Positions 31,501 to 52,033 of a DNA stretch of 64,000 bases are shown piece after piece (position 1 is the stretch's first letter; each line of letters opens with the position of its first letter). Source of the stretch: Methanomassiliicoccaceae archaeon (GTDB taxonomy: Archaea; Thermoplasmatota; Thermoplasmata; Methanomassiliicoccales; UBA472); the NCBI GenBank assembly GCA_963806355.1, contig CAWDXN010000005.1, positions 57,980-121,979 on the forward strand, given 5' to 3'. The notes below the pieces were generated by a model. It saw only the letters and a list, made by a program, of their open reading frames with translations. It searched no databases and was not told where the DNA came from. A program made the translations under genes and the position numbers.

Positions 31501-34500
31501 ACGGAACCGTCGTAAGCATATTCGACGCCTACTCCGGTGACCTGATCCCGTGCGCGAACGGCGTCGTATACGTGCCATACACCCTGATGCCGGGCGAGTG
31601 GTTCAAATTCTCGGTGACCTTCACGATCCCCAAGGATTGGACCTGGTGCGATGACGGCGAATGGATGAACAACACCTTCGACGGCCCAGGCCTGTTGCGC
31701 TGGCGGCTATGCCCGCGGAGAGGCCTCCTGGAGCACACACATCACTGACTGCTGCTCCATAAGGGTAGAGAAGTTCTCCAACGTTGATGAGGCCGCCCCT
31801 GGCGACCAGATCGAGTACACCTTGGTCATCACCAACACCGGAATGAACCGCCTCTGCGCCCTGAAGGTATGGGACCGTATGGAGTCCGAGAAGATCGATC
31901 TCGGCTGCGACCTTGACCCCTGCGAGAGCGTCACCTACACCTTTGTGTACACCGTGCCTGCCGATTGGAACTGGTGCGATGACCCACACATGATCATCAA
32001 CGAGGCTGGCGCCTGCGCCTACTGCTGCGACTGCGGCAAGTGGGTGAAGGACAAGGACTGCAACCAGGTCGAGATAGTCTACCCGCCCCAGATCGAGATA
32101 ATCAAGACCGCGAACGTCACCCAGGCCTGGGCTGACCCGATGTTCGGTAACAACATGATCGAATACACTGTTACCGTTAGGAACATCGGACCGACCCCGA
32201 TCACCTGCGTGCACGTGGTCGACGAGATGCTCGGACTGGACCAGTGGATCTGCTGCCTCATGCCCTGCTTCCCGTGCGGTGACTGTGACGGTACCGACCC
32301 GACGGCCACCCTAGTGGTTGACGGTGAGGATTGTGACTGCCCATCCTGCCATGGCAGGATGCATGAACTCCTGGACCTTCAAGAAGGTAGTAAAAGTCCC
32401 GTGCGACTGGTCCTGGTGCGATGATGGTGACTTCCTTGACAACTCCGCCACCGTTTCCGGTTGGGCCTGCGGTTACTCCGTCGGCGCAAGCGACAGCGTG
32501 TCGGTGAAGATAATCGATGAGTACCATCTCGAGATCGAGAAGACCGCCCCTGAGGTCGTCTATCAGGGAATGTCCGTCCCATACGTCATAACGGTCCGCA
32601 ACGCTGGAAGCAAGACGCTGACCTACATCGATGTCTTCGATGACTTCGAGGATGACGGTAAGATCGACCAGAACTGGACGATCGAGTGCTTGGCACCGTG
32701 CGAGAGCGTAACGTTCTACCCATCGTACATCGTGCCACAGGAATGCTGCAAGAAGGATTACAAGCTGGTCAACGAGATTTGTGCCACCGCCTGGGTCCGC
32801 AACATAATGGTCAAAGATATTGACCATGCGTGCTCTATGGGTCATGTGCCCGTGCAGCTTGGACATCGAAGTGATCGCCCCAGAGGGAGCGGAGCCTGGT
32901 CAGACCGTGCAGTTCACGGTCGTCGTCACCAATGACGGTAACATAACCATCGTTCAGATGGACGTGTACGCCATGATCATGTCCTGCGCCTGCCACAACT
33001 GGGAGAAGTACAAGCTTGGATGCATCATCTACCTGAACCCCGGTGAGTCGAAGGAGTTCACCTTCAACTACACCATCCCGACCTGCGAAGTGTGCTGCCA
33101 ATCCGGCTACAAGCTGATGCTATATGGCCATAGTTGAGGGAGAGTGCGGCTGCTCCGAGAAGGAAGTCTGGGATGGAGACATCGGATTCGCTGTGGGTAA
33201 GGGCATGCTGCGCCATCGAAGTTGAGATAACCGGTCCAGAGTGCGTCGAGCCTGGACAGACCGTGGTCTTCACCATCACTGTGACCAACCTGGGTGTCAA
33301 CAACCTGTGCTGTGTCAACGTGACCGCGTACGAGCTCGGATGGAGCAAGAAGATCGAAGGTCTGATGGCTGGACAGTCCATGAGCTGGGATGTACAGTAC
33401 ACGATACCTGCGAGCTGGAACCACTGCGACAACGGAGATAAGCTTTGTCGTGACGGTCTGCGCCGAGGGATTGTGCTGCGAGTGCTCCTCATGCTGCAAG
33501 GGCGCGCGCTGGGTCCAGGACAAGGTCGAAATGTACCGTTGGCCTGTAACGACCCGATAACCCTTATCGTCGATAAGACGTATATCGGAATCAGACAGGG
33601 GTCGGAAGTGAGAGCTTCGTCATTGAGAACCATGTCGATTCGAGGCCAAAACCGGGACAGATGGTCACTGTATGAGATCGTTGTCTACAACAAGGGTTGC
33701 CTGCCATTGAGCTGCATCGAAGTGTACGATGATCTTATCGGATACGTTGGATGCATCCCGTGCTTACTCCCCTGCGAGCAGAAGGCATTCAAGGTATTCT
33801 ATGAGATACCGTGCAACTGGACCTACTGCGAGAATGGCGAGTACCTGGTGAACACTGCGACCGCCGAAGGCTGGGCCTGCGACGTGGCAGTGAGCAGCAG
33901 CGACTCTGAGACCGTATTGGTGAACGCGGACCACATCGTTCAGGTGTACAAGTCGGGTCCAGCAGAGGCCACGCCTGGCGAGACCATCACCTATCAGATA
34001 AGCGTGTACAACGGCGGAAAGCAGCCCCTGTGCTGCCTGAAGGTGGTGGACTTCGTCAGCAACATGTGGGTAGGTAACTATCCGATGAGGCCGATCTGTG
34101 AGATGCTGAACTACACCGAGATCGACTGTCTGGAATCCCTGCGAGTGGTACAACTTCACGGTAACGTACACCGTGCCCGAGAACTGGACCTGCATGAACG
34201 GCGAATGGCTGTTCAACTGGGTCGAGGTCATGGGCAAGGCTTGCTGGCCGTGCGAGATGCTGACCGCTGGTGACCTAGTGTGGACCAAGATCGTTGACGT
34301 AAGCCCACCATCGAGGTGGAGAAGTACGCTCAGTGCGTTGCTGTGCCGGGTCAAGAGGTTCTCTACAACATCGTAGTGACCAACCCGAACTGCATGGCTT
34401 TGGGCTGCGTCGAGGTTGAAGACGAGATGCTTGACTACTATTACGTCATCCCGTGCATGCAGCCATTCGAGACGATCGTGATCCCAGTCTGGTTCACCGT

Positions 34501-37276
34501 CCCGGCGGACTGGTCATACTGCGAGAACGGAGAGTACATAAACAACACCGTCGAGGTGTCTGCGTGGGCGTGCACGAAGCGCGTGAGCGACTCCGCCGAA
34601 CACACCTTGATGATCTGGGACCCGATGGACCTGAGGATCAAGCAAGACCTCCGATAAGCCTGATGGAGTTAGGCCTGGCGAGACCATCACCTACACTATA
34701 ACGGTGTGGAACGCTGGCTCTAAGGTGCTGAGCTCCGTCATGATCGTCGATGAGATGCTGAACTTCTGCGAGACCATCGAGTGCCTGATGCCGTGCGACA
34801 GTGAGACCTACACCCTCACCTACACTGTGCCCGAGGACTGGACCTACTGCTGTGACGGGAGTAGGATCGAGAACATGGCTAGTGGCATGGGCCATAGGTT
34901 GCCCGCTGTTGATGCTCGGCTATGACATCGCCTACGACAATGTAGTGCGTCAAGGTCATCGACATCGATGAGAGCATCAGGGTCTGGAAGGAACTGGGTA
35001 CGTCGATGCCAACGACAACTTGCGCGGACGGAGGCACATGCCTGAGATCAACCCAGGTGACAAGCTGGTCTGGCATGTCTTCGTCAAGAACACCGGCAAG
35101 ATCGCACTGAGCTGCATCAACGTCACCGACATCATGACCTCGTGCCAGGGTGGCGAGTGGGTATTGTACGACAAGACCCTGACCTGCTGCCTGGCCCCGT
35201 GTGAGACAGGACTGCTTCGACATCGAATTCACCGTGCCTGAGGAGTGCTGTGGCGACTTCATGCTGACCAACAGCGTCACAGCAACGGCATGGGCGGAGG
35301 ATGTGTTCGTATCCTGGTACTGACAGGAGTGCGTCAATGGTGCAGGGCGACTGCGACATAGAGATAGCGAAGACCCCGCTGAAGGATGTGGTACTGGTCC
35401 GATGAGGTGATAGGGTGGAACATCACCGTCAAGAACGTCGGTGAGAAGAAGCTCTACTGCGTCAACGTGACCGATGACCTCCTGCCGGGTGGATACTGGT
35501 ACATAGCTGAGCTGGCAGTTGGCGTAGCAAAGTATACAAAGATGTGTTCGACAACTCGACGCACATTCCGTGCAACGGAACCGCAACGTGCGTGTACAAC
35601 ACCGCCTCTGTGTCCGCGAAGTGCTGCGCTCGATGGCAACAACGACGACTGCTGCGTTATCACCAAGGAAGCCACTGGAAAGGTCGAGGTTAGGCCAGTA
35701 TACTCACTGGATGTGGATGTCGACATACTATTCAGGTGTCAGAAGTGCATCGAGCAGAACTTTATGGAATGCCGGTGCTGCCCAGAGCCTGGAGATTGTG
35801 TCAAGATCCATGTCAGCGTGACCAACGATGGCAGGGAGACCATATACGGGTATGAGCTCGTTGACACTCTGATGGGTGTCCATGAGTATGTGCTCGCATC
35901 TGCTCCGCTGAAGTCTGGTGAGACCGACGACTTCTGGTATGATTACCAGATCCCGTGCAACTGGACCTACTGCGACGACGGCAAGTACCTTGAGGACTGC
36001 TTCACTGCGATGGCCTGTGAGGTCTGTCCAGTGTACGGCAGGGTTACCATAGTGGACAGCGACTGCGATCATGCAGGGAAGTGTGCGGCCCACAGCTGCT
36101 CATGACCAAGGATGCGTATGTGGATGGCAAGCTGGTTACCGAGGTTATGCCCGGTGATGTCGTGACCTACGAGATCACCGTGAAGAACGTCGGTGAGCAC
36201 TCCGTCTCCTGCATATACATCATGGACACGGTCATGATCGGTATGATGCCGGTATACTTCCAGTCGGACATGATCTGCTGCCTGGCGCCGTGCACCGAGT
36301 ACGTGTGGACCTTCGAGTACACCGTGCCTGAGTGGTTCTGCGAGTGGGGCGACTATCTGTGCGACAAGGCAGTGGCCTTCGGTCTGGTAAACGACATAGG
36401 ATGCTGCTTCGAGATGCAGAAGAAGATGGACTGCGGTTACAACCCGTGGTTCGAACTGGCCTGTGCAGAGAACAAGCTATTCGTGCATAACGAGTTCCAC
36501 CTTGAGGTCATGAAGATCAACAACTTCGGCCTTAGGTGCGCGGAACCCGGCGATATCATCCTGTACGAGATCTGGGTGGCAAACGCCGGTACATGCTCCA
36601 TCACCAACGTCTATGTTGATGACGACATGATCGGGCTGCACGCAAAGATCGACTGCCTGATGCCCTGCATCGACTGCAACCATGAGACCGTAAATGGAAT
36701 GGACTGCCATGCAACATGGCCGTCTTCCGTGGGTCTTACCAGATCCCGAGCGACTGGTCGTATTGCGATGATGGAAACGTCATCGTCAACACGGTCACCG
36801 TGAAGGGCTGGCAGTGTGGCGCGTCTCAGACCGTCAGCGACAGCAACTACGTCTATGTGTCAGACGCTTGCGACGTCCGCATCTATATCGACTACCCGCT
36901 TACCGCCAAGTCTGGCGAGACCGTCACTGTCACCGTAACGGTGAAGAATGAGGGTTCCGGAATGGCTTGCGGTATAAAGGTATGCGATCAGGTGTTGGGC
37001 CTGCACGAGATGATCTGGTGCCTCGCTCCGTGTGAGTCGGTGACCTTCACCAGGCAGGTAGCAATACCCGCCTGTGACGGCGTGACCCACTATGTGAGCG
37101 GGACCACCGAGATCGTCGGATGCTGCTGCGAGTGCTGGGACTGCCCGTGGATGCCGAGCGGCGCCCAAGAACTATCTGTGATGCCGAAGTGCTGCTGCGT
37201 ACACGAGGACGCAGGCTGGAGCATCATGATCGTTTGCGGATGCTGCGGTGGAGTACCGGTACCGGTACCAGTCTAA
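28585..37276 (+). CDS. Giant (about 2,900 aa) cysteine-rich surface protein with more than 20 DUF11-like Ig-fold repeats; broken into many ORFs by indels
   Basis: GGAGG SD, N-terminal hydrophobic segment; recurring i.K.gP....G..i.y.i.v.N.G...l..v.v.D units through all fragments; ends CGCCGGVPVPVPV. Confidence 0.8.
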
Positions 37277-37287
37277 GAGTCTAAACA

Positions 37288-37329
37288 GGGAGCTTAGCTC
37301 CCATCTTTTCCTTTTTTTTTTCTTTTTCT
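37288..37329 (+). terminator. Hairpin plus long T tract
   Basis: GGGAGC-TTA-GCTCCC followed by T-rich run. Confidence 0.75.
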
Positions 37330-37382
37330 AACAAATCTCATATCCATCTAGCATGTTCTCCATCCAGGTCCAGGTGTTCTGA

Positions 37383-38290
37383 TTGAGACGGATGATAGTG
37401 CATGGAGGGGCCTGGGACATACCCAAGGACCTTCACGATGACCATAAGAAGGGTTGCCTGCGCGCCCTTGGGCTGGGACAAGAGCTGCTAGAGTCCGGAG
37501 GTAACGCGATGGACGCAGTGGAAGCGGCAGTGGTCTCGATGGAGGAGGATTGCGTGTTCGATGCAGGATGCGGTTCCTTCCTGAACGAGAAAGGAAAGGT
37601 GGAGATGGACGCCATCATCATGGACGGGCGCACCTTGGCCTTCGGCGCTGTGGCGGCCATCGGCAATGTGAGGCATCCCATCAAGGTGGCGAGGTCGGTC
37701 AAGGAGAGGACCAGGCACTGCATGCTTGTGGGCGAAGGGGCAACCGGGTTCGCTAAGGAGATGGGCTTTGAGATGTTGGAGGACCACTGCTTGGTCTCCG
37801 AGAGGGAGCTTGCAAGATGGAAGGACATTCAACGCATCAAAGGCTTCCACCAGCGAGATGCCTTCAGCGGAAAGGCGCGTCTGCCCCGATGGGGACCGTG
37901 GGTGCGGTCGCGATCGATGATGAGGGCGATATCGCCGTCGCTACCTCCACGGGCGGAACTCCCAACAAGATGTCCGGAAGGGTCGGCGACAGCCCTTTGG
38001 TGGGGTGCGGCACATATGCCGACAATAGTTCAGCGGGCGTGTCCGCGACAGGTTATGGAGAGGCTTTGATGAAAATATGCGTCGCACGAAGGGTATGTCA
38101 GAATATTGAGGCGGGAAGGAACGCCCGGTCGGCAGCCAACGAGGCGATAGCGTTCTTAGAAAGAAGGGTGGGGGGGTATGGAGGTGTGATCCTCATCGAT
38201 AGGATGGGGGAGATATCCTATGCCCACAACACTCCAAGGATGGCGGTGGCCTATACCGATAAGATAGGGCGGATGAGAGCGATCATCTGA
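37383..38290 (+). CDS. Isoaspartyl peptidase / plant-type L-asparaginase (Ntn hydrolase); frameshift near 37875
   Basis: IVHGGAW, VEMDAIIMDG, GTVGAVA, ATSTGG, GRVGDSPLVGCG, SATGYGE. Confidence 0.92.
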
Positions 38291-38371
38291 TCCTGACACC
38301 ATTCGACCGTGTCTATAACAGACAAGCTCACCGCTATCCCTTCATCGATCATGACCTTTTTTCTCGGTCTG

Positions 38372-38950
38372 TCACATCGATGCGGTCAAAGGGCGGCCGG
38401 GATGCTGCCCTCCAGTTATCTGCCCTTGCGACATTGCCTCGCCCTGTCCGGATCGCTGGGCTTCCTTGACCGTGCTCTCGTCCAGCTGCATCTTGGGGAA
38501 CACCGCCCATAACCGGTCCAGGTCCTTCTGCTCCAGGGTGAGGGGGTCGATGCCGATGTACATCACCCCACCGTTCACCTTCAGAGCCTGGTTGATCTCC
38601 TCGAGTGTGGCGAGCAATTTGCGCATGTCATTCCAGAGCAGGAGGTATTCCAGACCGTCCAGGAAGAATATCACCTTCCGGTCCTTCGCCTCCAGCTTGA
38701 CCGCCTTCGACAGTGCGGTCAAGGTCTTGGGAGAGATCACGTTGTCCCCTTTGCTTCCGCTGAGCCAGTAGTACTTGGGCGATAAAAGACCGAACTTCTC
38801 CATCACGTACTCTGGATGCAACCGGGTTATGCAGACACCGGGGGTGCCATCGGCGATCATGCTGGCAAAGGAACTGAAACCGAGCCGAGGAAAACCCTCG
38901 ACCAGCATGACCACGTTCATATTGGCATCCTCAGGAGACATAACGTACAC
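38372..38950 (-). CDS. DUF835-like protein, divergent from STAND regulator
   Basis: CITRLHPE, YWLS, ISPKTL, FLDGLEYLLLWND, IDPLTL. Confidence 0.8.
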   Translation of the reverse strand: MYVMSPEDANMNVVMLVEGFPRLGFSSFASMIADGTPGVCITRLHPEYVMEKFGLLSPKYYWLSGSKGDNVISPKTLTALSKAVKLEAKDRKVIFFLDGLEYLLLWNDMRKLLATLEEINQALKVNGGVMYIGIDPLTLEQKDLDRLWAVFPKMQLDESTVKEAQRSGQGEAMSQGQITGGQHPGRPLTASM

Positions 38951-39029
38951 TCTGCTAGCACATACCCTTTCATTTTCGTGATATAAAAACTGATTTTGAG
39001 CATGCTCATTTTGAAATGAGAGTCTATCT

Positions 39030-39043
39030 TATCCTCAAAGATA
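39030..39043. promoter_or_regulatory. TATC-N6-GATA site in divergent promoter of DUF835 gene and STAND regulator
   Basis: TATCCTCAAAGATA; a second palindrome CTCAT-N6-ATGAG at 39005-39020. Confidence 0.5.
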
Positions 39044-39089
39044 ATAATTTGAAGGGAATTATTTTTATTCAAGAAAACAATCTTAGTCC

Positions 39090-41780
39090 GTGAACCGAGC
39101 CGCCCGGAAGTCATTATTGACTGCCCGGGAGAGGGTGCTACTGCACCTACTGTCCTACCAGAGGTACAGTCAGGACGCTGATGCCCCCAAAGCCGTTATT
39201 CAAGAGGGAATAGCGGATGCGGTTGAGGTCGGTCGCAACAATGTCGCCAAGATCTTGAACGAGATGGCCAACGAGCGCATCGTCGATATCCTTTCCAAGC
39301 ATGTCAAGGGCCTTCCGAGCGTCCGCCGGGTCTATTTCCTTTCCACCAAGGGCTTCGATGAGGCCAAGCATCTCAAGGAGGACCTCGAGGCGATGAAGGT
39401 CGAGGTCATCGACCTTAAGGGGGACGTGCACCAGGACGAAGTAGGTCGCCTTTCCGTCTATATGCCCGGCAATTACACCTTCCTGGAAATAATCATGGGC
39501 GTTGCCAGGGGTAAGTTCGATTGCCGATCCTTCCACGAGTCCAAGACCAAAGAGGAGAGGCGTTTCGTTGACTTCACCGACAAAAAGCCGGCGGTCCGAT
39601 CCTTCTTCGGCAGAGAAAAGGAATACCGTCAGCTGATGGACCTGATCAACGGTGAGAGCACCCGGGCCATCATAATCTATGGAATCCCAGGGATCGGGAA
39701 GACCACATTACTGGCGAAGTTCGCCCAAGATGTCCGAGAACAGACCAACGTGTTCTGGCTTAAGATTCACGAATGGGTCAACGTGCGAGGCCTGCTGCGA
39801 CCGCTGGCGGAGTTCCTCTCCCAACTGGGAAAGAAGAACCTGGAATGGTACCTCAATCAGAACGAGACCCCTCACACTGGTGAGGTCTTGCAGATCCTGA
39901 TCACGGACATGGGGGACATCCCGGTCCTGCTCATATTCGACGATGTGCACAAGGGCGAGCGCCTGGTGCTGGATTTCCTCAACGCGCTTATCAACATGAT
40001 CGAGGAGCTGCCCAAGGTCAGGGTGGTCTGCGCCACCAGGGAGGTCCCGGCCTTCTATTCTCGAAGCCTGGTCATCCGGAACCTGATCAGGGAGATGCAG
40101 ATGGAGGGATTGGACAGGGAGAGCAGCCTGAGGATGCTGAGGGCCCGTTCCATGCCCGAGGGCGACATAGAGCAGGTCATCCAGATCACGAAGGGGCATC
40201 CTTTGTTCCTCGAGCTCATCGAGGAGCCTCAATCGGCATTGGGGAAGAACATCCGCATGTTCATCGATCAGGAGGTGGTCTCCAAACTGGATGTGGCGGA
40301 GAAGCGCATCATGAACGTGGCATCGGTGTTCCGTTACCCGGTCATCATGGACGCCTTTTTCATCACCGAGGAGGAGATCCGCAAGGACCTCAACGGAAAG
40401 GAGATCGAGCTCCAGGACATCGATTACACCGTCTCGTATGAGACGGTCGACTCTCTGATTTCCAAATCCATCCTCCATGAGTCCATCGGGCGCATGATAG
40501 GCATGCACGACCTACTTCGTGAGTTCACTTATTCGCGATTGACGCCTAGGCAGAGAATGATCTACCATCGGGCCGCTTCAAAGTTCTATATCCAGGACTC
40601 CTCGCACTCATCCAAGGTGGAGGCTTTGTACCATTGTATCATGGCAAAGGACCTAGAGAAGGCAGTGGAGGTGGCGGCAGGGAGTGGCCAGGAGATCATC
40701 TCCAAGGGATACGCCATGCAATTCGACCCCTTGCTCAGCCGATTGCTGGTGGAGACAAAAGGTCAGGCGAACCGGGACCGAATGGAGCTGCTCATGTTGC
40801 ACGCCCAGATCCTGGAGCTGCATGGTGAGTACGAAAGGGCGGTGGAAGAGCTCGCCGAGATGCTAGAGGACCTGCCTGTCGACAAGGGCTCCCGTCTCAA
40901 GGCCGAGGTGCACAGGAGGCTGGGAGTGCTGGAGATGAAGCGCAACCTGTACGATAGCTCATCTCAACACTTGGCAGATGCGTCCAGCATAGCCAATGAC
41001 ATCCGGGACTCCCAGACCCTGGCGGACATATACTATGACACCGGGGGTTTGCTGGAGCGGCGCGGTAAGTTCGACGAGGCCGTGCAGAACTTCGAGGCGG
41101 CAGGAGACTTCGCTCGGGGCGTAGGGGATAAGATCGCCTTAGGAAGGTCCCTATATGGTCTGGGCAGGGTCAAGGCAAGTTTGTTGGAATACACAGAAGC
41201 GGTGCGATTGAAGAAGGAGGCCCTTAACATCCTCGAGCGCACCGGCGATGTGAACATGACCTCCAAGGTATGCATCGGCATCGGCAATGACATGCGCTCC
41301 ATCAAGCAGGGCGATGAAGGTTTGAAATATCTGGAAAGGGCGGTCGACCTGGCCACCTCGGTTGGCGACATCAACACATTGGCCTATGCGCTATCGAACC
41401 AGGCGGCGGAGTACCTGGCGAGGAACGACCTGGCCAAAGCGGACGAGCTATTGCATGAGGCCACCAAGCTTTTCATCAAGCTCAACGACCAGGTGATGAT
41501 ATCGAACATGCACTTCTATCGTGGCTTCCTCTACAATATGAGAGGCGATTGGGAATGGGCCAAGGAGGAGTTCAAGCTCAGCATTGACACCTTAAGAGGG
41601 TTCGACATACCCTCGAGGTTGGCGCTATGGCTGCTTGAGATCGCCTCGGTCTACATGGAGAACAACGAGAAGGAAGAGGCCATGAAACTTTACGAAGAGG
41701 CCTATTCCGTCGCTTCGCGCATCGGTCACGAGAGGATCATGCGGGATGCAAAGGAAAGCATGGCTAAGATCATGGCCTGA
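39090..41780 (+). CDS. wHTH - STAND NTPase (NB-ARC/MalT-like) - TPR transcriptional regulator
   Basis: N-terminal winged helix (QEGIADAVEVGRNNV...RRVYFLSTKG); FFGREKE, GIPGIGKTT, LIFDDVH, GHPL, MHDLLR; C-terminal TPR-like helical repeats; intact 896-aa ORF. Confidence 0.88.
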   Translation: MNRAARKSLLTARERVLLHLLSYQRYSQDADAPKAVIQEGIADAVEVGRNNVAKILNEMANERIVDILSKHVKGLPSVRRVYFLSTKGFDEAKHLKEDLEAMKVEVIDLKGDVHQDEVGRLSVYMPGNYTFLEIIMGVARGKFDCRSFHESKTKEERRFVDFTDKKPAVRSFFGREKEYRQLMDLINGESTRAIIIYGIPGIGKTTLLAKFAQDVREQTNVFWLKIHEWVNVRGLLRPLAEFLSQLGKKNLEWYLNQNETPHTGEVLQILITDMGDIPVLLIFDDVHKGERLVLDFLNALINMIEELPKVRVVCATREVPAFYSRSLVIRNLIREMQMEGLDRESSLRMLRARSMPEGDIEQVIQITKGHPLFLELIEEPQSALGKNIRMFIDQEVVSKLDVAEKRIMNVASVFRYPVIMDAFFITEEEIRKDLNGKEIELQDIDYTVSYETVDSLISKSILHESIGRMIGMHDLLREFTYSRLTPRQRMIYHRAASKFYIQDSSHSSKVEALYHCIMAKDLEKAVEVAAGSGQEIISKGYAMQFDPLLSRLLVETKGQANRDRMELLMLHAQILELHGEYERAVEELAEMLEDLPVDKGSRLKAEVHRRLGVLEMKRNLYDSSSQHLADASSIANDIRDSQTLADIYYDTGGLLERRGKFDEAVQNFEAAGDFARGVGDKIALGRSLYGLGRVKASLLEYTEAVRLKKEALNILERTGDVNMTSKVCIGIGNDMRSIKQGDEGLKYLERAVDLATSVGDINTLAYALSNQAAEYLARNDLAKADELLHEATKLFIKLNDQVMISNMHFYRGFLYNMRGDWEWAKEEFKLSIDTLRGFDIPSRLALWLLEIASVYMENNEKEEAMKLYEEAYSVASRIGHERIMRDAKESMAKIMA

Positions 41781-41843
41781 TCTTTTTTATAAAAAATAAG
41801 TAAGGCGTTTGAAAACAGTTTGGGAAGGAAAGATCTGCAACCC

Positions 41844-42260
41844 TTAGTGGGGATCCACGCCAGGGATCACATGCGGGTCGACACCGGGGATGACGTGTGG
41901 GTCAACACCAGGGATCACATGCGGGTCCACGCCAGGAATCACATGTGGGTCTACGCCCGGGATGGCATGCGGATCCACGCCAGGGATCACATGAGGGTCC
42001 ACGCCAGGTATCACATGTGGATCGACACCGGGGATGACGTGTGGGTCAACACCAGGGATCACATGCGGGTCTACGCCAGGAATAGCATGCGGATCGACAC
42101 CGGGGATGACGTGTGGGTCAACACCAGGGATCACATGCGGGTCCACGCCCGGGATGGCAAGGGCTGCCACACCTAGGAAGGAGCCCACCATCACAAGGCA
42201 CGCAAGCACGGCGACTACGCCGATCAATACGGCCATGATTTTCTTTGTTGCCTTCTGCAT
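41844..42260 (-). CDS. Secreted tandem-repeat peptide precursor: signal peptide + 13 x [V/A]IPGVDPH
   Basis: GGTGA SD before ATG 42260; basic n-region, hydrophobic h-region, A-L-A cleavage motif; repeat variation almost all synonymous in this frame. Confidence 0.88.
   Translation of the reverse strand: MQKATKKIMAVLIGVVAVLACLVMVGSFLGVAALAIPGVDPHVIPGVDPHVIPGVDPHAIPGVDPHVIPGVDPHVIPGVDPHVIPGVDPHVIPGVDPHAIPGVDPHVIPGVDPHVIPGVDPHVIPGVDPHVIPGVDPH
41847..42158 (-). repeat. 13 x 24-bp coding tandem repeat
   Basis: 312 nt = 13 exact-length units; third-position variation only, apart from V/A at one position. Confidence 0.95.
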
Positions 42261-42297
42261 CAACTTCACCTGCACCAAATTATTATGCAAACCTGTT

Positions 42298-42478
42298 TAT
42301 CATTGTTGATATTAAAAGCGTCTTTGAGCATGCTACACTAAACATTAAATATCAGTAATGATAAAAATCTTTCTATATTATTGAATGTTTATAATCTGTG
42401 ATAACGTGTCCAGATTTGAATGATTTATCAGATTTGATAATTAATAGTATTTATATTGAAATACTATCCGAATCGATA
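42298..42478. promoter_or_regulatory. Cluster of five TATC-N6-GATA-type palindromes upstream of the peptide gene
   Basis: 42298 TATCATTGTTGATA, 42350 TATCAGTAATGATA, 42390 TATAATCTGTGATA (1 mismatch), 42426 TATCAGATTTGATA, 42465 TATCCGAATCGATA. Confidence 0.75.
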
Positions 42479-42532
42479 AAAATCGTCCGGTCTATGATTT
42501 TTTATTAATTCGAACGTTCCTCACGTTATCAA

Positions 42533-43224
42533 ATGAGTGAAAGAAGGGAAGGACTGACGAAGCTCGGGATCGTGTTCGATCTAGACGGGACCTTGATCGA
42601 AAGCACTATCGACTTCGGGCTCATGAGAGATCGTGTCTTCAGATATCTGATCGATATTGGTTTGGGATACGTTCTGGAGCGATCGGACACTATCGCCAAC
42701 AACATGGACCGGGTGCGGCAAGAGATCCGCGATATGAATCTAGACCTCAAGACCGTCGAGACGAGCGTCGAGGCCATCTGCGTCGAGGTGGAGATGATGT
42801 CCGTGGATTACACGAAGGAAGTGCCTGGGGCAGGCGATGCATTGAGAACGCTTCGCGTCATGGGGATATCCGCTGGCATTGTTGACCCGAGGGTCCCGGA
42901 ATTATGCCACGCATGCTCTTCGCGCATCAAATCTTACAGGATTGCTGGACGCCATCATCTGCCGGGACGACTACGACCGTCTCAGAGGCGAAACCTCACC
43001 CGGAGGCCATGCGCCGGGCCGCCGCCGCCCTGAACCTGCGACCGGAGCAATGCATCTTGGTCGGGGATCATTTGATGGACCTGGAATGTGCCCTTTCGGC
43101 CGGCTCGATGTTCGTGGCGGTCCTGAGCGGACATAATGGTCGGAAGGGTTGGGAGGATCTGGGTGTGGAAAGGATGATCCCATCCATCGCCCAACTGCCG
43201 AGATATCTCGAGGAGATGACATGA
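42533..43224 (+). CDS. HAD-superfamily hydrolase (phosphoglycolate phosphatase-like); frameshifted
   Basis: VFDLDGTL, TR, KPHPE, VGDHLMD. Confidence 0.88.
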
Positions 43225-43276
43225 GGAACGTCTTCACTCCACCAACTATATCCCACTGACGTGGGATTCGGGAACC

Positions 43277-43657
43277 ATGAGGTCCATTGTAAAGAGCGAG
43301 GATGCGCCGGAACCGATCGGTCCCTATTCCCAGGCCGTCATCTCGGACCAACTGGTGTTCTGCTCAGGCCAGTTAGGTGTCGACCCTCGAACTGGAAGGA
43401 TGGTCGATGGCGGGACTGCCGCGGAGGCCCGACGTTGCCTCGAAAACCTCAAGGCCATACTGGAGCAGGCGGGGACAGACCTCACGAAAGTGCTGCGATG
43501 CACCATCTTCATGACCGACCTGATGGACTTCCAGGCCTTGAACTCGGTCTATGCGGAGTTCTTCTCGGCGTCGCCACCTGCCAGGACCACCGTTCAAGTG
43601 GCGGCGTTGCCCAGAGGGGCTAAGGTGGAGATCGATGCGATCGCGTCCCTGACCTGA
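43277..43657 (+). CDS. ridA: RidA/YjgF/UK114 enamine deaminase
   Basis: APEPIGPYSQA, SGQLG, PPARTTVQVAALP, VEIDAIA. Confidence 0.93.
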   Translation: MRSIVKSEDAPEPIGPYSQAVISDQLVFCSGQLGVDPRTGRMVDGGTAAEARRCLENLKAILEQAGTDLTKVLRCTIFMTDLMDFQALNSVYAEFFSASPPARTTVQVAALPRGAKVEIDAIASLT

Positions 43658-44272
43658 TCAGGCCTTGGCATTCACAGAATCGGCCTTGATGCCGTCGTAC
43701 TTGACCTCGAATCCCTTTTGGCAGACGGGACAACAGACGTAATACTCGCGGTCGTCCTTCTTGACCTTGTAAGCGTTGTCGTGGATCTCCTTCTTACAGT
43801 AGTTGCAGGTCAGCACCACAGAGGACTCTGGGGTGACGGTGGCCCTCTGGTTCTCCTTGACCACGGTGACGATGTTCGCAATGTCGAACTCGATGATCTC
43901 ATGGATGTCGGCCATCTTGGAAAGGAAATCGTTGATGAGGTGCTGGTGGTGGAAGGTGCACATGAGCATCAGCTTGCCGCTGCTGAGCATGAATATCTGC
44001 CTCACGCTCTCGTTCTCCTGGAACTGCTCCGCCACCTTCTTGATGTCAACTGGCTTGGTCTTGATGCTCAGGACAACGCTGATCCCTCCCAGTTTCTCTG
44101 GGTCGAGGGTGGCGGTGTAACCCTTTATGATGCCCATGTTCTCCATCGAGCCGACCTTGCTGCTGACCGTGGGAACGCTGACCTTCACCCTGTCCGCGAT
44201 CTGACGGAAGGATAGGCGACCGTTCTCCTGAAGGACCTTCAGGATCCTAACGTCGGTATTGTCCAGTTTCAT
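43658..44272 (-). CDS. Lrp/AsnC-type HTH regulator with C-terminal TRASH domain (archaeal CopR/CopT-like)
   Basis: LDNTDVRILKVLQENGRLSF HTH; CNYC...YYVCCPVC; divergent from copA. Confidence 0.88.
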   Translation of the reverse strand: MKLDNTDVRILKVLQENGRLSFRQIADRVKVSVPTVSSKVGSMENMGIIKGYTATLDPEKLGGISVVLSIKTKPVDIKKVAEQFQENESVRQIFMLSSGKLMLMCTFHHQHLINDFLSKMADIHEIIEFDIANIVTVVKENQRATVTPESSVVLTCNYCKKEIHDNAYKVKKDDREYYVCCPVCQKGFEVKYDGIKADSVNAKA

Positions 44273-44429
44273 ATGGAAAAGGGGAATTAAACAATCATTA
44301 ATAAAGATATCCGTTAAACGAACAAACTAGTCGAGGTTAACATGACGTTAAGAATGCAAAATACTCGTAACTATTCTTTGCATTCGTTGATAGACATGTA
44401 GATGAACCAAGAGCATGGATGTGGTGTAG

Positions 44430-46933
44430 ATGAGCGACGCAAAGGACGGAGGGTCCGACCGACCGAAACTGGAGTCCAAAGGAAAGAGGACGGCAAGCTT
44501 CGGGGTCACCGGTATGACCTGTGCCACCTGTGCTCAGACCATCACTGAATCGCTGCAGGGATTGGAGGGGGTGGAAGGGGCGAGCGTCAACCTTGCCACC
44601 GAGAAGGCCACTGTGGTCTACGACCCTGAGAAGGTGACCATGGAGAAAATGGCCTCCGCCATAGACCAGGCTGGATATGGGGTCATAGTTAACCAGGTCA
44701 CCATCGCCGTCGGGGGCATGACCTGCTCCTCCTGCGTTCTTTCTGTGGAGGAATCCTTGCTATCATTACCTGGCGTTCTTTCCGCCTCTGTGAACCTTGC
44801 CACCGAGAAGGTGACGGTGAGGTACGATCCACAGCAGGTACGCCTCCCTCAGATCAAGCAGGCCATCAAGGACGCTGGATACGATGTGCTCGAGGCGCAG
44901 ACGGTGGATGCGGAGAAGGAGCTTCGGGCTGAGGAGACGGCCCGCCAGAAACGATTGCTGGTCTTCGCTTGGACGCTCGCATTGCCGGTATTCGTCATAA
45001 TGATGCTGATGACGTTCACCACATTGGGCGATGAGCCCTTCCTGATGGACTATGGCAATTACATCCTGTTCCTGCTCACCACGCCGATCCAGTTCGTCGC
45101 CGGTTACCGATTCTACATCGGCGGTTACAAATCCTTGCGCAATGGCGTGGCCAACATGGACGTGCTGGTGGCGGTGGGCACCTCAGCGGCCTATTTCTAT
45201 TCGGTGGCAGTGACGTTCTTTCCCGACGCCTTCCCCTTCACATGATGTCTACTATGACAGCGCCGCCCTCATCATCGCGATAGTGCTGTTAGGCAAGTAC
45301 ATCGAGGCCAGGGCCAAGTCCCGCACCTCCGATTCCATACGAAAGCTGATCGACCTGCAGGCCAAGAGCGCCACCATAGTGCGTGAAGGCAAGGAGGTGA
45401 CCGTTCCTGTGGATGAGCTGGATGTCAATGATGTCATGGTCGTCCGACCGGGGGAGAAGGTCCCCACCGATGGCGTGGTGATCGAGGGCGAATCGGAGGT
45501 GGATGAGTCCCTGATCACCGGAGAGAGCCTGCCAGTGCACAAGGGGGAGGGCTCATCTGTGGTGGGAGGTTCCATCAACAGCAATGGATTGCTCAAGGTC
45601 AGGGCCACCCGGGTGGGGGCCGACACCGCTCTGGCCCAGATCATCCGTCTCGTGGAGGAGGCCCAGGTGTCCAAGGCCCCCATCCAACGCATGGCCGATC
45701 GGGTGGCCTCGGTCTTCGTGCCCATCGTCATCACCATCGCTGTCTCTGCCTTCCTCTTCTGGTACTTTTTTGGGGCCTCGTATTACGGGGTGGACCAGGT
45801 CTTCCCGTTCTCATTGTCGGTGTTCATCGCCGTGCTGGTCATCGCCTGCCCCTGCGCCCTTGGCCTGGCCACACCGACCGCCATCATGGTAGGGACGGGA
45901 AAGGGCGCGGAACTGGGCATATTGATCAAGAACGGGCAGGCATTGGAGATAGCCGGTAAGGTCGGGGTCATGGTCTTCGACAAGACCGGTACCTTGACCC
46001 AGGGCAGACTTGAGGTGACCGATATCGTTGCCATCGGAATCGCCGAGGAGGATCTGCTGCGAACCGCTGGTGCGGCCGAGAAAGGGTCGGAGCATCCCAT
46101 CGCCAAGGCCATCGTCAGGAAGGCCGAGGAGAATGTCCGAACTGCCGGAGGTGGGTCAGTTCGAGAACGTGCCTGGCAAAGGCATTTCGGCCCATATCGA
46201 GGGCAGGTGGGTACTGGTAGGGTCGAGGAGGATCATGCAGGATAACTCGGTGGACCTTGCTCCGGTCGAATCGCACATCGCTCGCTTGGAAGACCTTGGA
46301 CGGACCACTCTGGTGGTGGCCCAGGAAGGAGTGGCGGTCGGTGTGCTCGGGGTCTCGGATGTGGTGAAGGATTCCGCCCTGGTGGCGTTGAACGAGCTGA
46401 AGCGCATGGGGATCGAGGTGGTCATGATGACCGGCGACAACCGGCGGACCGCTGACGTCATCGCCAAGCAGCTCGGCATAGACCGAGTGCTGGCCGAGGT
46501 GCTTCCCGGTCAGAAGGCGGAGCAGGTGGCCGCCCTTCAGAAGGAAGGCAAGGTGGTGGCCATGGTCGGGGACGGGGTCAACGACGCCCCTGCCCTGGCC
46601 CAGGCCGACCTTGGCATCGCGGTGGGCTCTGGCACCGATGTGGCCATAGAGACCGGGGACATCGTCCTGATAAGGAACGACCTGAGGGACGTCGTGGCAG
46701 CGATCCAGCTGAGCGCAAGGACCTCAGTGAAGATCCGGCAGAACCTGTTCTGGGCCTTCGCTTTCAACACCATCGGGATACCGGTGGCCGCAGGTATTCT
46801 ATATCCCAGTTTTCAATTGTTGTTACCGCCCGCGCTGGCGGCAGGGGCGATGGCTCTGAGCTCAGTCACCGTCGTCACCAACGCCGCTCTGTTGCGGACG
46901 TATGTGCCTGAGATCATCAGGGAGAGGGAGTGA
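44430..46933 (+). CDS. copA: Cu(+)-translocating P1B-type ATPase; frameshifts near 45240 and 46135
   Basis: GMTCATC and GMTCSSC metal-binding domains, TGES, CPCALG, DKTGT, SEHP, GDGVNDAP, MALSS. Confidence 0.95.
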
Positions 46934-46934
46934 A

Positions 46935-47081
46935 ATGGCTATCGATCCGATATGCATGATGGAAGTGGACGAGAAGACCGCCAAGTGGAAATCCGAATAC
47001 AAGGGCAAGACCTATTACTTCTGCGCGCCTGGATGCAAGAAGAAGTTCGATGCGACCCCGGAGAAGTACATTAAGGCCTGA
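46935..47081 (+). CDS. YHS/TRASH small metal chaperone (48 aa, below ORF-track cutoff)
   Basis: MAIDPICMMEVDEKTAKWKSEYKGKTYYFCAPGCKKKFDATPEKYIKA. Confidence 0.9.
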   Translation: MAIDPICMMEVDEKTAKWKSEYKGKTYYFCAPGCKKKFDATPEKYIKA

Positions 47082-47179
47082 ATTGAGGATGTCTATCCCG
47101 TTCGTGCTAAGGGCGGGAAAATACCATAGCATTCTTTTTAATATTCCACAGCGATTAAATCCCTTCTTGGGGGCAGCAC

Positions 47180-50022
47180 ATGCAGTCGATATTCTGGGTC
47201 CTGGACAACGGTCAACCTTTTGTTGACTCGCTGAGGGAGGACCTGGTGAGCCGGGGCTACTGCGCCGGCCTGGTGGCCGACATCGATGCCTTCCTTGATG
47301 ACCAGATCAGCGGTTACGCGAGAGCGCTGATCATGCTGCACGACCCCCAATGCAACGTTATCCCAGTGCTGAACCACATCAACCAGCAGATGGTGACGAC
47401 CCCGGTGGTGGTCCTTTTCCAAAATGTGGACATCGTGGGCGTCACTGAACTGGCCAACAACGGGGCCGATCTCATCTATCCCCTGGACATGGACGTGGAC
47501 GATATGTTCCGCCGCCTCGTCGCCGACGTGGAAAGGCTTGGGGGCGGTTACAACGGGGACCACAACGAGCCGACCGAGATGAGCTTGTTGGACAAGATGG
47601 AGAACTTGGCCGATTGGGTGTGGCGCATCGACGAGAAGGGGCAGATAACCTTCTCGAGCGAGAGCGTGCGCAAGATCCTGGGCTATACTCACACCGACCT
47701 CAAGGGCAAGGTGCTCTGGAGGCTGACGCCCACCATCGAGATGCCACGGTTCCACTCCCAATTGGAAGAGGTCAGGCAGAATGCTCAGGAGCCCTCTGCG
47801 CTCCAGTTCGTGATCATATCCAAATCCGGCACCGTAGTTCACTTGGAGGGTCTGGCCATGCCTCTCTTCGATGTGGACGGCGCTTATATGGGCATGATCG
47901 CCGCCTGCAGGGACGTGACCACCCACAAGAAGGCGGTGGAGGACCTGATGATAGCGGAGGACCGCTATAGCATACTCTTCGAATCGTCCCCTGACCCGAT
48001 CATCACCCTCAGCCCGGGAGGGCGCATAGAGTCCGTGAACTTGGCAGGGGTCAGTCTGCTCGGGGCCACGAAGGCCAATGAGCTGATCGGCAGGAGCTTC
48101 TACTCCTTCATCGCGGAAGGTGAGAGGAACCGGGCCAACAACTACTTCCAAGAGCTGTTGCGGAACCACGAGCACTTCCAATCCGAGTTCATCTTTCAGA
48201 GGGACAATGGAACCAGCCTTTTGATGGAGATCAGCGCAGCGGTGCTACTGGAATCGACCGGGAAACCGTCCTGCATAATCGCGATATTGCACGACGCCTC
48301 GATGCGCAACCGCATCGCCTACGAGTTCCAGACCAACAGTGTGCATCATCCCCACCTCAACCTCCACTCGCAGGACATCTTCGCGGAGATAGACCAGGAC
48401 CTGAGCATCCGTTACCTGAGCTCCAACTTCGAGACCATCACCGGCATCCCGGTCCGGGAGGTTATAGGCAAGGCCCCCTTCGACCTCATGGAGGAGGAGG
48501 ACCGGTTGAGCTTGGTGGAGGAGATGGAACCGTTGCTGAGCCGCATGCAGCCCTTCTTCTCCGTGCGTTACCGTGCCCGACGTTCCGATGAGAAGGTCCT
48601 GCATTTCGAGATGAACGGCATACCCTTCTTCGACGATGACAACATGTTCCGAGGCTACCGGGCGCTGGTGCGGAACGTGACCGACCGGGTCGAGAAGGAG
48701 ATAGCCCTGAAATTGGAGCAACAGAAGCTCGAAACGATAATGCAGAACATCTCCGAGGATATCTGGATAACCGACCTTGACTTCCAATTCCTATATGTGA
48801 GCAACAACATGAGAAGGTCCCTGGGTCTGAACGGGGGACCGATCGATTTCGACATGATGAAACGGTGCCTCGACCAAGAGTCCATCGAGAAGCTTGAGGA
48901 GGCCTACAAGACCCTTAAGAACCTGGCCAAACAACATCGGGTCAAAGAGAGCCCGGTGCTGAAGGTGGAGACCAAGGTGTTGCGCAAGGATGGCACATTC
49001 TTCTGGAGCGAACAGAAGATGATGTTGATCCGCCGTGACAGCGGCGAGTCCGTGGGCATCCTCGGCATCGCCAAGGACATAACCGAGGAGAAGCGTCTTG
49101 AGGTGGGTCTGAGAAGGAGCGAGGCGCGCAACCTCTGTTTCCTCAGATCGGCCATGGAGATCGTCCTGGTCATCCATCCATACAAGGGCACCATCCTCGA
49201 GGCCAATCCGAGGAGCTGTTCCGACCTGGGCTATAGCCGGGAGGAGATGGTCGGTAACCATCTCTCCTTGATCGTGGAGGGTTGGAACCGAGATGACCTG
49301 GCCGCCCTAAGGGACAAGGTCGTCGCCGGAGAGTTGGTCAGGGTGGAGGGAAAGCATCGCCGCAAGGACCGCACCCTCATGGATGTGGAGACGTCCATGA
49401 TGGCGATGCCATGGGAGGACGATATGGCCATCGTCGCCTTCTCCCGAGATGTTAGCCATTCCAACGCTCTGGTGAGCAAGATCGCGGAGAAGAGGGAGGA
49501 CTTCCTGACGGCAGCAGGCCTGGCCAATCTATCCGAGGATTGCGTCACCGAGGAGGAGATGCTCGGGGAGGCTTGAAGCTCCTGATCGATCGAAACCGTT
49601 TTGAGGCCGGAGCGGTCTTCTTCAACAACGGTATTGGCGGTTTGAAGCTGGTGGCCCATCAGGGCATACCGAATGAGGGCCTTAGCATCCTGGACAAGAT
49701 GAACGGCCATTATCCCAATTTGATCCACTATTTGAATAGCCATGAGCCGGTCTGGGGCGAGAAGGCCATGGACCGGACCGATTGGGCCAGGACATGGGGT
49801 GTCGAGTCCTTCGTGGCATTCCCATTGACCAATGGCGCCAAACCCTATGGCATCATGGCCTTGGCCTCGACCAAGGAAGAGCTGATATCATATGAAAGGC
49901 GGGAGGTGCTGCGGACCTTCTGGAAACAGATATGCGATTCGCTAGCGCTGGTCCGTCTGAAGGAATTGATAAAACATGAGGTGGCGCAGACCTCCATCGA
50001 GGCGCTGCGCGTTAAGAACTGA
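47180..50022 (+). CDS. Multi-sensor protein: degenerate receiver-like domain, five PAS domains, C-terminal GAF-like domain (probable frameshift near 49570)
   Basis: Five PAS units ending RDVT/HDAS/RNVT/KDIT/RDVS; SFVAFPL...YGIMALAS GAF-like tail; no HisKA/HATPase motifs. Confidence 0.75.
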
Positions 50023-50038
50023 TGAAAAAAGGTTTTTC

Positions 50039-51631: not shown

Positions 51632-51739
51632 CTGAAACCCTCTAACAATGGGAACGAACGAATTGTACCGGAAACAATTCGCTCTATTTTAAATGTATTG
51701 TAATCTGGCGCATCTGGAATGTATAAAAATCAACAATAT

Positions 51740-52033
51740 GGTCGGTCCGGGGCTTACCGGGCTTCTGGGTACTTCGGCGCTTGGTTCCGCCAAGGGTATC
51801 TGCAGATCACCTTGGTCGTAGGACCTGCGTCGCCCAATCTCCTCACTGGGCTTTTTCACCTCAATGGTGTAGGCCGCGTTGGGAATTCGCTTTTGCCTTC
51901 TATGGATTTACCATAGGGCGCAGGCGAACCGAAGCAAGGGCTTCGAATCGGGGCGGATACCTGGGGCGCCATCCTCAAATGACGCTGATATCAATCCGTT
52001 TTCCCCAGAGGGCATACGGCCCCCGGACCGATT
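51740..52033 (+). ncRNA. Putative about 294-nt highly structured RNA of unknown class
   Basis: 13-bp closing helix and nested long-range helices plus several hairpins; most G-U pairs work on + strand; no credible ORF. Confidence 0.6.

Follow-up and report, generated by a model that had tools for sequence, protein, structure and literature searches.

Gram-positive bacteria and fungi characteristically signal from cell to cell with ribosomally made peptides. The closest described systems are the RRNPP(A) pairs of Bacillota (Rap-Phr, PlcR-PapR, NprR-NprX and AimR-AimP), in which a small propeptide gene lies directly beside the gene for a cytoplasmic protein with a helix-turn-helix (HTH) domain and tetratricopeptide repeats (TPRs). 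In the excerpts of the two accounts used here, the TPR sensors bind adjacently encoded peptides of 5–10 residues (PMC11343458), the pheromone forms the C-terminal end of a Sec-exported propeptide beside an HTH-TPR receptor (PMC11343458; five-criterion signature in PMC10075063), propeptide size is given as 10–100 (PMC10075063) or 50–120 amino acids (PMC11343458), and some propeptides hold one to four copies of the peptide (PMC11343458). Fungal repeat proteins processed by Kex2, such as the yeast alpha-factor and ustiloxin precursors, have a signal peptide and many identical short cores, and according to a part of PMC7329392 their products are unmodified pheromones in some cases. TPR-sensor STAND regulators such as MalT and PH0952 of Pyrococcus horikoshii join a nucleotide-binding oligomerisation domain (NOD) to a TPR sensor. 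The known ligand of MalT is a sugar. Here we describe a gene in a 64 000-nucleotide stretch of DNA (the window) from a Methanomassiliicoccaceae archaeon (assembly GCA_963806355.1, contig CAWDXN010000005.1, positions 57 980–121 979) that encodes a precursor with 13 copies of the heptapeptide IPGVDPH and converges on the gene of a predicted STAND regulator with a TPR sensor.

We judge it an even call that the precursor yields many copies of a secreted peptide signal for which the STAND protein is the cytoplasmic receptor, an arrangement RRNPP-like in its working and outside that family. We favour this because the heptapeptide unit is the conserved entity, kept in 1–13 copies whether tandem or spaced, and because the precursor gene adjoins a TPR-sensor regulator and has a promoter element in common with another signalling gene. 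As in RRNPP(A) systems, a small propeptide gene stands directly beside the gene of a cytoplasmic protein with predicted HTH and TPR domains; the propeptide, known here from its sequence, has an export-type leader at the N-terminus and a unit of 5–10 residues at the C-terminal end; and the unit can be repeated (excerpts of PMC11343458 and PMC10075063 report tandemly duplicated pheromones) and differs between close relatives. Two features by which RRNPP(A) pairs are recognised, a receptor with TPRs and receptor and propeptide genes as direct neighbours, are present, and the precursor has 138 amino acids against the propeptide range of 10–100 or 50–120. The candidate receptor, however, is an 896-residue STAND NTPase with a winged HTH (wHTH)-NOD-TPR layout instead of an HTH-TPR protein of 250–500 residues, the host is an archaeon, copies number up to 13 instead of one to four, and one genus has no export leader. 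We therefore rejected membership of the pair in RRNPP(A), on the size and NTPase module of the receptor and on the archaeal host. Unlike Kex2-processed proteins, the precursor has no dibasic sites between its cores, belongs to a prokaryote and has no homology to them. Unlike MalT, the regulator is proposed to have a peptide partner. Our literature search did not find this gene family or peptide pheromones in archaea described, nor a genetically encoded peptide partner beside a STAND protein of the MalT/PH0952 type, and the main text of an archaeal RiPP survey (RiPP, a peptide made by ribosomes and modified post-translationally) mentions neither Methanomassiliicoccales nor multi-core precursors.

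The precursor gene and its family

A preliminary description of this DNA, made from the letters alone, had reported a MQKATKK start, a hydrophobic helix, ALA, 13 repeats and a stop directly after the last His, with a wide range of codons and a V/A change as the only amino-acid difference. Re-reading the 138-residue open reading frame (ORF) confirmed both points. Residues 1–35 are MQKATKKIMAVLIGVVAVLACLVMVGSFLGVAALA, and residues 36–138 hold 13 identical IPGVDPH units joined by 12 single-residue linkers (10 V, 2 A); all four Pro and all four Val codons, three Ile codons and both codons of Asp and of His are used in the units. Tandem Repeats Finder reports periods of 24 (12.6 copies, 76% matches) and 72 nucleotides (4.1 copies, 86%). 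Across the 13 seven-codon cores, the proportion of differences is 0.74 at synonymous sites (pS) and 0 at non-synonymous sites (pN). The cores need at least 13 synonymous and 0 non-synonymous codon-type changes, which would have a probability of about 2e-8 under neutrality, assuming that about 25% of single-base changes are synonymous. Comparisons of units within each gene in 36 orthologues, at a nucleotide identity of about 0.8, gave at least 300 synonymous versus 3 non-synonymous codon-type differences. The protein-level selection claimed earlier is thus borne out: purifying selection acts on every unit of the precursor, and the substitution pattern proves the reading frame. A TTG start at 42290 would extend the protein to 148 residues; we prefer the ATG at 42260 because the orthologues start at the same MQKATK and because the TATA-like box would put transcription start near or after the TTG.

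AlphaFold2, given the precursor as a single sequence, returned a mean predicted local distance difference test (pLDDT) score of 56, in which only an N-terminal helix at residues 2–34 is confident (block pLDDT 79–96); the repeat region scores 42–52 with no secondary structure predicted. Searches with the precursor gave only a sub-threshold chance match in Pfam (Mtr2), nothing in NCBIfam and no usable match in the ESM Atlas. A protein homologue search likewise found two relatives only, and it was whole-genome searches that exposed the family. These searches placed a precursor gene in 53 of 251 genomes of the order Methanomassiliicoccales (E<=1e-4), distributed over families f1 (23/46), f2 (1/1), f3 (3/4), f4 (1/1), f5 (8/10), f6 (12/24) and f7 (4/164). 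Of the f7 matches, three are 25–26% identical with 3–10 in-frame stops, and the fourth is a 32-residue stretch. Two genomes of the same genus have a gene 92% identical to that of the window, with 12 units counted in each. Orthologue cores were picked by pattern, so that strongly diverged units, such as one aberrant AFRCDPH unit that G016 has in addition, went uncounted.

The orthologues share one architecture, a leader followed by cores of the form I-P-x-x-[D/S/E]-P-H, and the cores are identical within each gene and different between species. Positions 3–4 of the core are GV, GT, GI, GN, GL, FI, FL, LL, VL, ML, VS, VN, HI or LI. Copy number ranges from 1 (G030) and 2 (five genomes) up to 13. 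Cores are in tandem in genera g1, g5, g7 and g8 and in f6; f5, f2, f3 and some others have 8–20 unrelated, variable residues between them. The tandem linkers are single V, A, I, N, T or S residues. Within any one species the same residue stands before each core, spacers notwithstanding, and the unit may therefore be an octapeptide. Most orthologues stop exactly at the final PH, with extra residues found in g8 (four), in G027 of g7 (three) and in g3 (one or a few). In lipoproteins the h-region ends in a lipobox of the pattern [LVI][ASTVI][GAS]C. The window precursor has VLAC, g8 has ISAC and g5 has SIAC and AIAC, and leaders without Cys are found in G028 and G029 of g7, in g2, and in most of f5 and f6. 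A profile search of 1.84 billion representatives found 208 proteins at E<=1e-3. Among the 150 matches listed, roughly 30 are small full-profile proteins, judged by eye from length and matched range, and of 20 matches inspected the small ones are family members of 46–125 amino acids. Large matches (e.g. a 1669-residue protein with TDPVYTPG repeats) align with the repeat part only and were set aside, as they look like unrelated low-complexity matches.

Genus g3 carries a different form of the gene, found in 8 of 8 loci (L049-L054, L056 and L057), two of them broken into several frames. It has the same position and the same promoter, and the protein starts with a basic, hydrophilic segment, MK[V/I]KST.NY.NVR.RGKN, followed by 7–12 units of (M/N)P-LPGVGP[H/V/Y/W]. 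No hydrophobic segment was found at these loci, where the in-frame sequence upstream is the promoter itself. In G005, all 12 units are identical in DNA, which points to a recent expansion.

Public RNA data cover the precursor gene. Twenty public runs from 13 studies are listed as containing part of 41500–42700, six of them RNA libraries, and we compared four metatranscriptome runs (three studies) with 41500–42700 and then with 37300–52000. The contigs over 41500–42700 cover 41869–42278 only, that is, the precursor gene, in all four runs; lack of transcription, which the preliminary description had named as refuting its reading, thus finds no support. Four contigs end at 42264–42269, 4–9 nucleotides before the ATG. 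The runs were chosen by the stretch with the repeat gene, and the cover of the DUF835 gene, also seen in 4 of 4 runs (38431–38945 at most), is independent of that choice. The regulator was touched in one of the four (two short contigs), and a bin inside the HAD gene (42701–43191) in none.

The adjacent regulator and the gene block

By its domain matches, the protein encoded next to the precursor is a STAND NTPase with a TPR sensor. The TPR part is matched by TPR_12 (at 1.1e-19), TPR_2 and TPR_MalT, and the closest solved relative is the TPR-sensor STAND protein PH0952 (6mfv_A of PDB entry 6mfv; E 4.5e-20, residues 165–820). Walker A (G198-T206, GIPGIGKTT) and Walker B (D284 D285) are invariant in 24 regulator orthologues. 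The N-terminal region is conserved (mean pairwise identity 0.56) and has no Pfam match at E<=0.01; in our reading it is a winged helix.

The stop codons of the two genes are 63 nucleotides apart, and the precursor gene lies convergent just past the regulator stop in 16 of 16 loci of the same family, as it does in 18 of the 20 loci drawn from four others. A regulator orthologue is present in 65 of the 251 genomes of the order (f1 35/46; f2 1/1; f3 3/4; f4 0/1; f5 9/10; f6 16/24; f7 0/164). By genus, regulator and repeat gene are either both present or both missing; the apparent exception, g3, has the leaderless variant. At the f4 locus (G049) the repeat gene is at a contig end, where the regulator was not found. 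Distant homologues of the regulator (25–33% identity) occur in 122 of 301 Thermoplasmata genomes, and a 4-mer count of 14 stretches downstream of such homologues found no repeat ORF.

All 16 family loci, and likewise all 9 of the wider loci taken from five families, keep both genes within one block. Along it lie, in order, DUF835 (−), wHTH-STAND-TPR regulator (+), repeat gene (−), HAD hydrolase (+), RidA, Lrp-TRASH, CopA, YHS and FAD oxidase. The Lrp-TRASH gene was found in 8 of the 16 loci of the family and in all 9 of the wider set. In f5 and f2, a gene resembling NAD-dependent epimerases/dehydratases (SDR-type) is inserted between the HAD and repeat genes (L084:8181-9275, L086:8347-9324).

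A promoter element in common with the DUF835 gene

The second gene linked to the precursor by its promoter encodes a stand-alone DUF835 protein. DUF835 is described, in the portion of PMC5847659 used here, as an inactivated KaiC-like (iKaiC) output domain of archaeal response regulators. The element GCATGCTC, followed after 6–11 nucleotides by a TATA-like box, is found in exactly two places in the 1.72-Mb assembly that contains the window, one before the precursor gene and the other before the DUF835 gene; we take the box at 42308–42317 to be an archaeal TATA box. Of the 16 family loci, 15 have both sites, G020 having no exact match at either; the site of the precursor gene was also found in 8 of 8 g3 loci and, among the other families, in 19 of 20. 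Five near-complete relatives have 2–4 sites each, always including those of the precursor and DUF835 genes, with 0 matches to a reversed-pattern control. Scans of the window assembly and of the relatives' loci found no element before a copper gene.

Some further copies were found. At five f6 loci (L070, L071, L073, L078 and L080), the HAD promoter carries a third copy, GAGCATGCTC followed by TATA, and the HAD hydrolase of f6 may belong to the same regulon. Three of the five near-complete relatives have an extra good site outside the module (GTAGCATGCTC and TATA; L114 in G028, L115 in G089 and L116 in G065). This extra promoter is followed by a conserved GGAGAAGGNCCACGGGG stretch, with an adenylate-kinase-like (Fap7-like) ORF in two of the three loci, and a search of Rfam with this third promoter site gave no match. 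The window genome has the GGAGAAGGNCCACGGGG stretch on contig C4, where the element is absent.

Archaeal activators act at sites directly upstream of the TATA box. The STAND protein would be expected to bind the element, or the palindrome of the DUF835/regulator intergenic region, through its putative wHTH. This assignment is favoured because the element persists in the 7 g8 loci among the 16 family loci, where no Lrp-TRASH gene was found in the locus sequence, and because the palindrome precedes an ORF with a signal-peptide-like start beside a distant regulator homologue. In the latter case (L109:880-1470; G367, another Thermoplasmata family), the homologue is convergent with this ORF of 159 residues, which has the same palindrome TGAGCATGCTCA and a TATA-like box in front of it. 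STAND regulators may therefore be paired with small secreted proteins more widely than in the heptapeptide family.

Joint divergence of sensor and peptide

The TPR part is the most variable region of the 24 regulator orthologues, with a mean identity of 0.42 versus 0.56–0.59 elsewhere. In genus g8, we compared 13 of 17 genomes, leaving out G032, G033 and G038 (gene at contig ends) and G044 (no match). Between G040 (core IPFIDPH) and G042 or G045 (core IPFLDPH), nucleotide identity is 0.79–0.89 along the locus, falls to 0.51–0.68 from the start of the TPR part through the end of the cores, and recovers in the leader, promoter and HAD gene. The same-core pair G042/G045 stays at 0.75–0.91 through the TPR part, with one low window (0.47) in the repeat array, where copy number differs (2 versus 5 units). 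Among the 16 closest g8 pairs, the ratio of TPR to flank divergence is 0.28–1.14 in the eight with the same core and 1.53–2.21 in the eight with different cores, all eight of which cross a single split.

A tree of the TPR part needs the minimum of two core-type changes (0 of 200 shuffles as low), with support of 93/93 for the IPFIDPH clade. A tree of the HAD-side flank needs four (18 of 200 shuffles), and a clade supported at 100/99 mixes two core types. Because the TPR tree needs two changes and the flank tree four, the sensor in g8 appears to follow the peptide and not the phylogeny of the flank. Over all 276 pairs of orthologues, residuals of TPR against N-terminal divergence differ little (same-core residual −0.09), a comparison that saturates at family-level divergence.

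A candidate peptide signal and its alternatives

If the precursor is a peptide signal, its leader-bearing form would be exported through Sec and cut at A-L-A, and the IPGVDPH units would be released as peptides of 7–8 residues. Exopeptidases are hindered by particular ends, and peptides that start X-Pro and end Pro-X resist trimming. The invariant N-terminal X-Pro and C-terminal Pro-X of the unit would block such enzymes and define the ends of the unit. Uptake might proceed through family-5 binding proteins (SBP_bac_5), which are present in the window genome and in 5 of 5 relatives. Inside the cell, the peptide would bind the TPR sensor of the adjacent STAND regulator, which would act through the shared GCATGCTC element on the precursor and DUF835 promoters, closing a positive feedback. 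Many copies would give a higher dose of peptide per transcript, and the species-specific x-x residues would confer specificity on the signal.

A number of points weigh against a secreted peptide with this receptor. Pfam assigns no protease, exporter or importer to the locus (21 ORFs, 33134–51631), and the family-5 binding proteins may equally import nickel. The 12-kb block, copper genes included, is syntenic throughout the order, and neighbourhood alone may therefore reflect descent. The long hydrophobic stretch (28 residues, within the modelled helix at 2–34) could be an uncleaved membrane anchor, and export is not universal, given that the g3 leader has no hydrophobic segment. The extra sites in relatives make the promoter element rare, not exclusive. 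TPR part and cores, which diverge jointly, are adjacent DNA, the TPR-coding end physically adjoining the cores because the genes are convergent, and the signal comes from few events, mainly from one split ({G037, G040} versus four genomes); same-core pairs with a strongly diverged TPR part also exist (L039 versus L035, 0.16 against 0.40). Finally, the RNA evidence consists of assembled contigs that give neither strand nor level, with DNA carry-over conceivable, and the uncovered parts are weak evidence for silence.

The precursor might instead remain uncleaved, its N-terminal helix serving as a signal anchor and its repeats as a disordered multivalent surface tail that presents I-P-x-x-D-P-H to an external partner. 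The uncharged hydrophobic stretch is 22–32 residues long in orthologues, AlphaFold2 models one helix with unstructured repeats behind it, and the locus holds no processing enzyme, all of which would suit such a tail. We nevertheless consider it unlikely: orthologues with one or two motifs have 46–58 residues in all and would make a poor tail, those of g3 have no anchor whatever, and in most lineages the last motif ends the protein exactly, as expected of a C-terminal mature peptide. An intracellular role, in which the repeat protein serves the STAND regulator or the DUF835 protein as ligand, decoy or scaffold and is tethered to the membrane by its leader, would account for the g3 orthologues, which without a hydrophobic leader keep position, promoter and repeats. 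TPR domains bind extended peptides containing Pro, and the precursor and DUF835 genes are covered together in RNA libraries. We think this improbable, however, as the basic n-region would stay inside under the positive-inside rule and so place the repeats of leader-bearing forms outside, and short cores that are exactly conserved and separated by spacers fit released units better.

The preliminary description had proposed a polyprotein cut into many 7–8-mers, pheromone or RiPP-like. The comparative evidence favours the pheromone-like half of that proposal, and RiPP-type modification is unsupported. An architecture in which a leader is followed by many identical cores with variable spacers, the last core being C-terminal, does resemble multi-core RiPP precursors and Kex2 repeat proteins (as outlined in a part of PMC7329392), and the units could be modified, for instance cyclised, by enzymes encoded elsewhere. 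There is, however, no radical SAM, YcaO, cyclase, peptidase or transporter family among the 21 ORFs at 33134–51631 or in the conserved block of the relatives, the sole variable insertion in that block is the SDR-type epimerase of f5 and f2, and the orthologue loci read show no dibasic or other conserved cleavage sites between cores, which leaves modified units with a small probability. Two structural alternatives raised in the same description fare worse. A His/Asp metal-binding array, if it belonged with the copper-resistance genes (Lrp-TRASH, CopA, YHS), would draw on one His and one Asp per unit and on CopA, YHS and a TRASH regulator within 5 kb in a block syntenic across the order. Since that synteny may be inherited, the copper genes alone are no evidence, and the His position of the core holds Ile in G027 and Val, Tyr or Trp in g3, while Asp gives way to Ser, Glu or Gly in other orthologues. 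One- and two-copy forms exist, G085 lacks CopA in the block and retains the module, and the promoter element is held in common with the DUF835 gene and not with a copper gene. A metal array is accordingly very improbable. An elastin-like structural polymer, suggested by the likeness of IPGV to the VPGVG unit, is hardly credible when copy number goes down to one or two, unrelated spacers part the cores in three families and positions 3–4 vary freely between species (GV, FI, FL, LL, VS, GN, HI).

Returning to the peptide signal, a broader claim can be made more tentatively, with somewhat less than an even chance in our judgement: that Archaea have here their first genetically encoded system of peptide pheromones, one in which a secreted heptapeptide made in many copies is read by a STAND TPR sensor and feeds back on its own promoter, and one whose cassettes diversify and perhaps exchange like bacterial pherotypes, and which is spread in free-living Methanomassiliicoccales and not found in 164 f7 genomes. 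If true, methanogens of wetlands and sediments would coordinate behaviour by a peptide signal, STAND NTPases would gain a class of peptide ligands, and the species-specific cores with jointly diverging sensors would be a natural system for the evolution of signal and receptor specificity. The module would also be a simple experimental handle, with a synthetic heptapeptide, one regulator and two target promoters.

Other features of the locus

The positions of the features discussed are collected in Table 1. The spacer between the convergent genes likely holds the terminators of both, judging from its T/A-rich sequence; one terminator-like site was reported on the + strand at 41762–41777 by a sigma-70/terminator scan, which is uninformative for an archaeon.

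Table 1. Features of the repeat-gene locus, in window coordinates (aa, amino acids; nt, nucleotides)
Feature	Position	Strand	Remarks
Precursor gene	41844..42260	−	138 aa and TAA stop (P0001); open frame of 138 codons
Leader, residues 1–35	42156..42260	−	Basic n-region MQKATKK, 28-residue uncharged hydrophobic stretch, A-L-A abutting the first unit
Repeat array	41847..42155	−	13 x IPGVDPH with V/A linkers; 24-nt units within a 72-nt higher-order period
Upstream element of precursor promoter, TAGCATGCTC	42326..42335	−	Precedes the TATA-like box
TATA-like box, TTTTAATATC	42308..42317	−	8 nt downstream of the element
Spacer between the convergent stop codons	41781..41843	.	63 nt, T/A-rich, TCTTTTTTATAAAAAATAA
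wHTH-STAND(NOD)-TPR regulator (predicted)	39090..41780	+	896 aa; convergent with the precursor gene; Pfam AAA_16, ATPase_2, NB-ARC, TPR_12, TPR_MalT
TPR sensor part of the regulator, residues 561–896	40770..41777	+	Coding end adjoins the repeat cores
Perfect 12-nt palindrome, TGAGCATGCTCA	38997..39008	.	DUF835/regulator intergenic region
DUF835 TATA-like box, TTTTTATATC	38980-38989		7 nt (38990-38996) from the palindrome
Stand-alone DUF835 gene	38372..38950	−	Divergent from the regulator; likely ATG 38941; Pfam PF05763, E 1.8e-20
HAD-family hydrolase gene	42533..43224	+	Two ORFs here; divergent neighbour of the precursor gene

The 12 contigs of the window assembly add up to 1.72 Mb, with a marker completeness of 59%, and McrA is among the encoded proteins. 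The assembly holds a single copy of the precursor gene, which is intact. Frame shifts split copA (44430–46933) into three ORFs and asparaginase (37383–38290) and the HAD gene into two each, and the regulator is also split in two genomes of the same genus (G016 and G017). Given these splits and the marker completeness of 59%, the split genes probably reflect indel errors in the assemblies and not pseudogenes. A run of Cys-rich ORFs at 29702–37276, with matches to DUF11, DUF7507 and CARDB and broken into many frames, is probably one or two large surface proteins interrupted by assembly indels.

A very abundant RNA was seen at 51740–52030, with a contig depth of 4245 in one metatranscriptome run and 90–153 in three others. 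Rfam assigns it to no family at E<=0.01. Its 5' and 3' ends are complementary (GGTCGGTCCGGGGC ... GGCCCCCGGACCGA), and contigs of three runs join a point near 52015 back to 51754, pointing to a circular or permuted RNA, or to a loop in the assembly.

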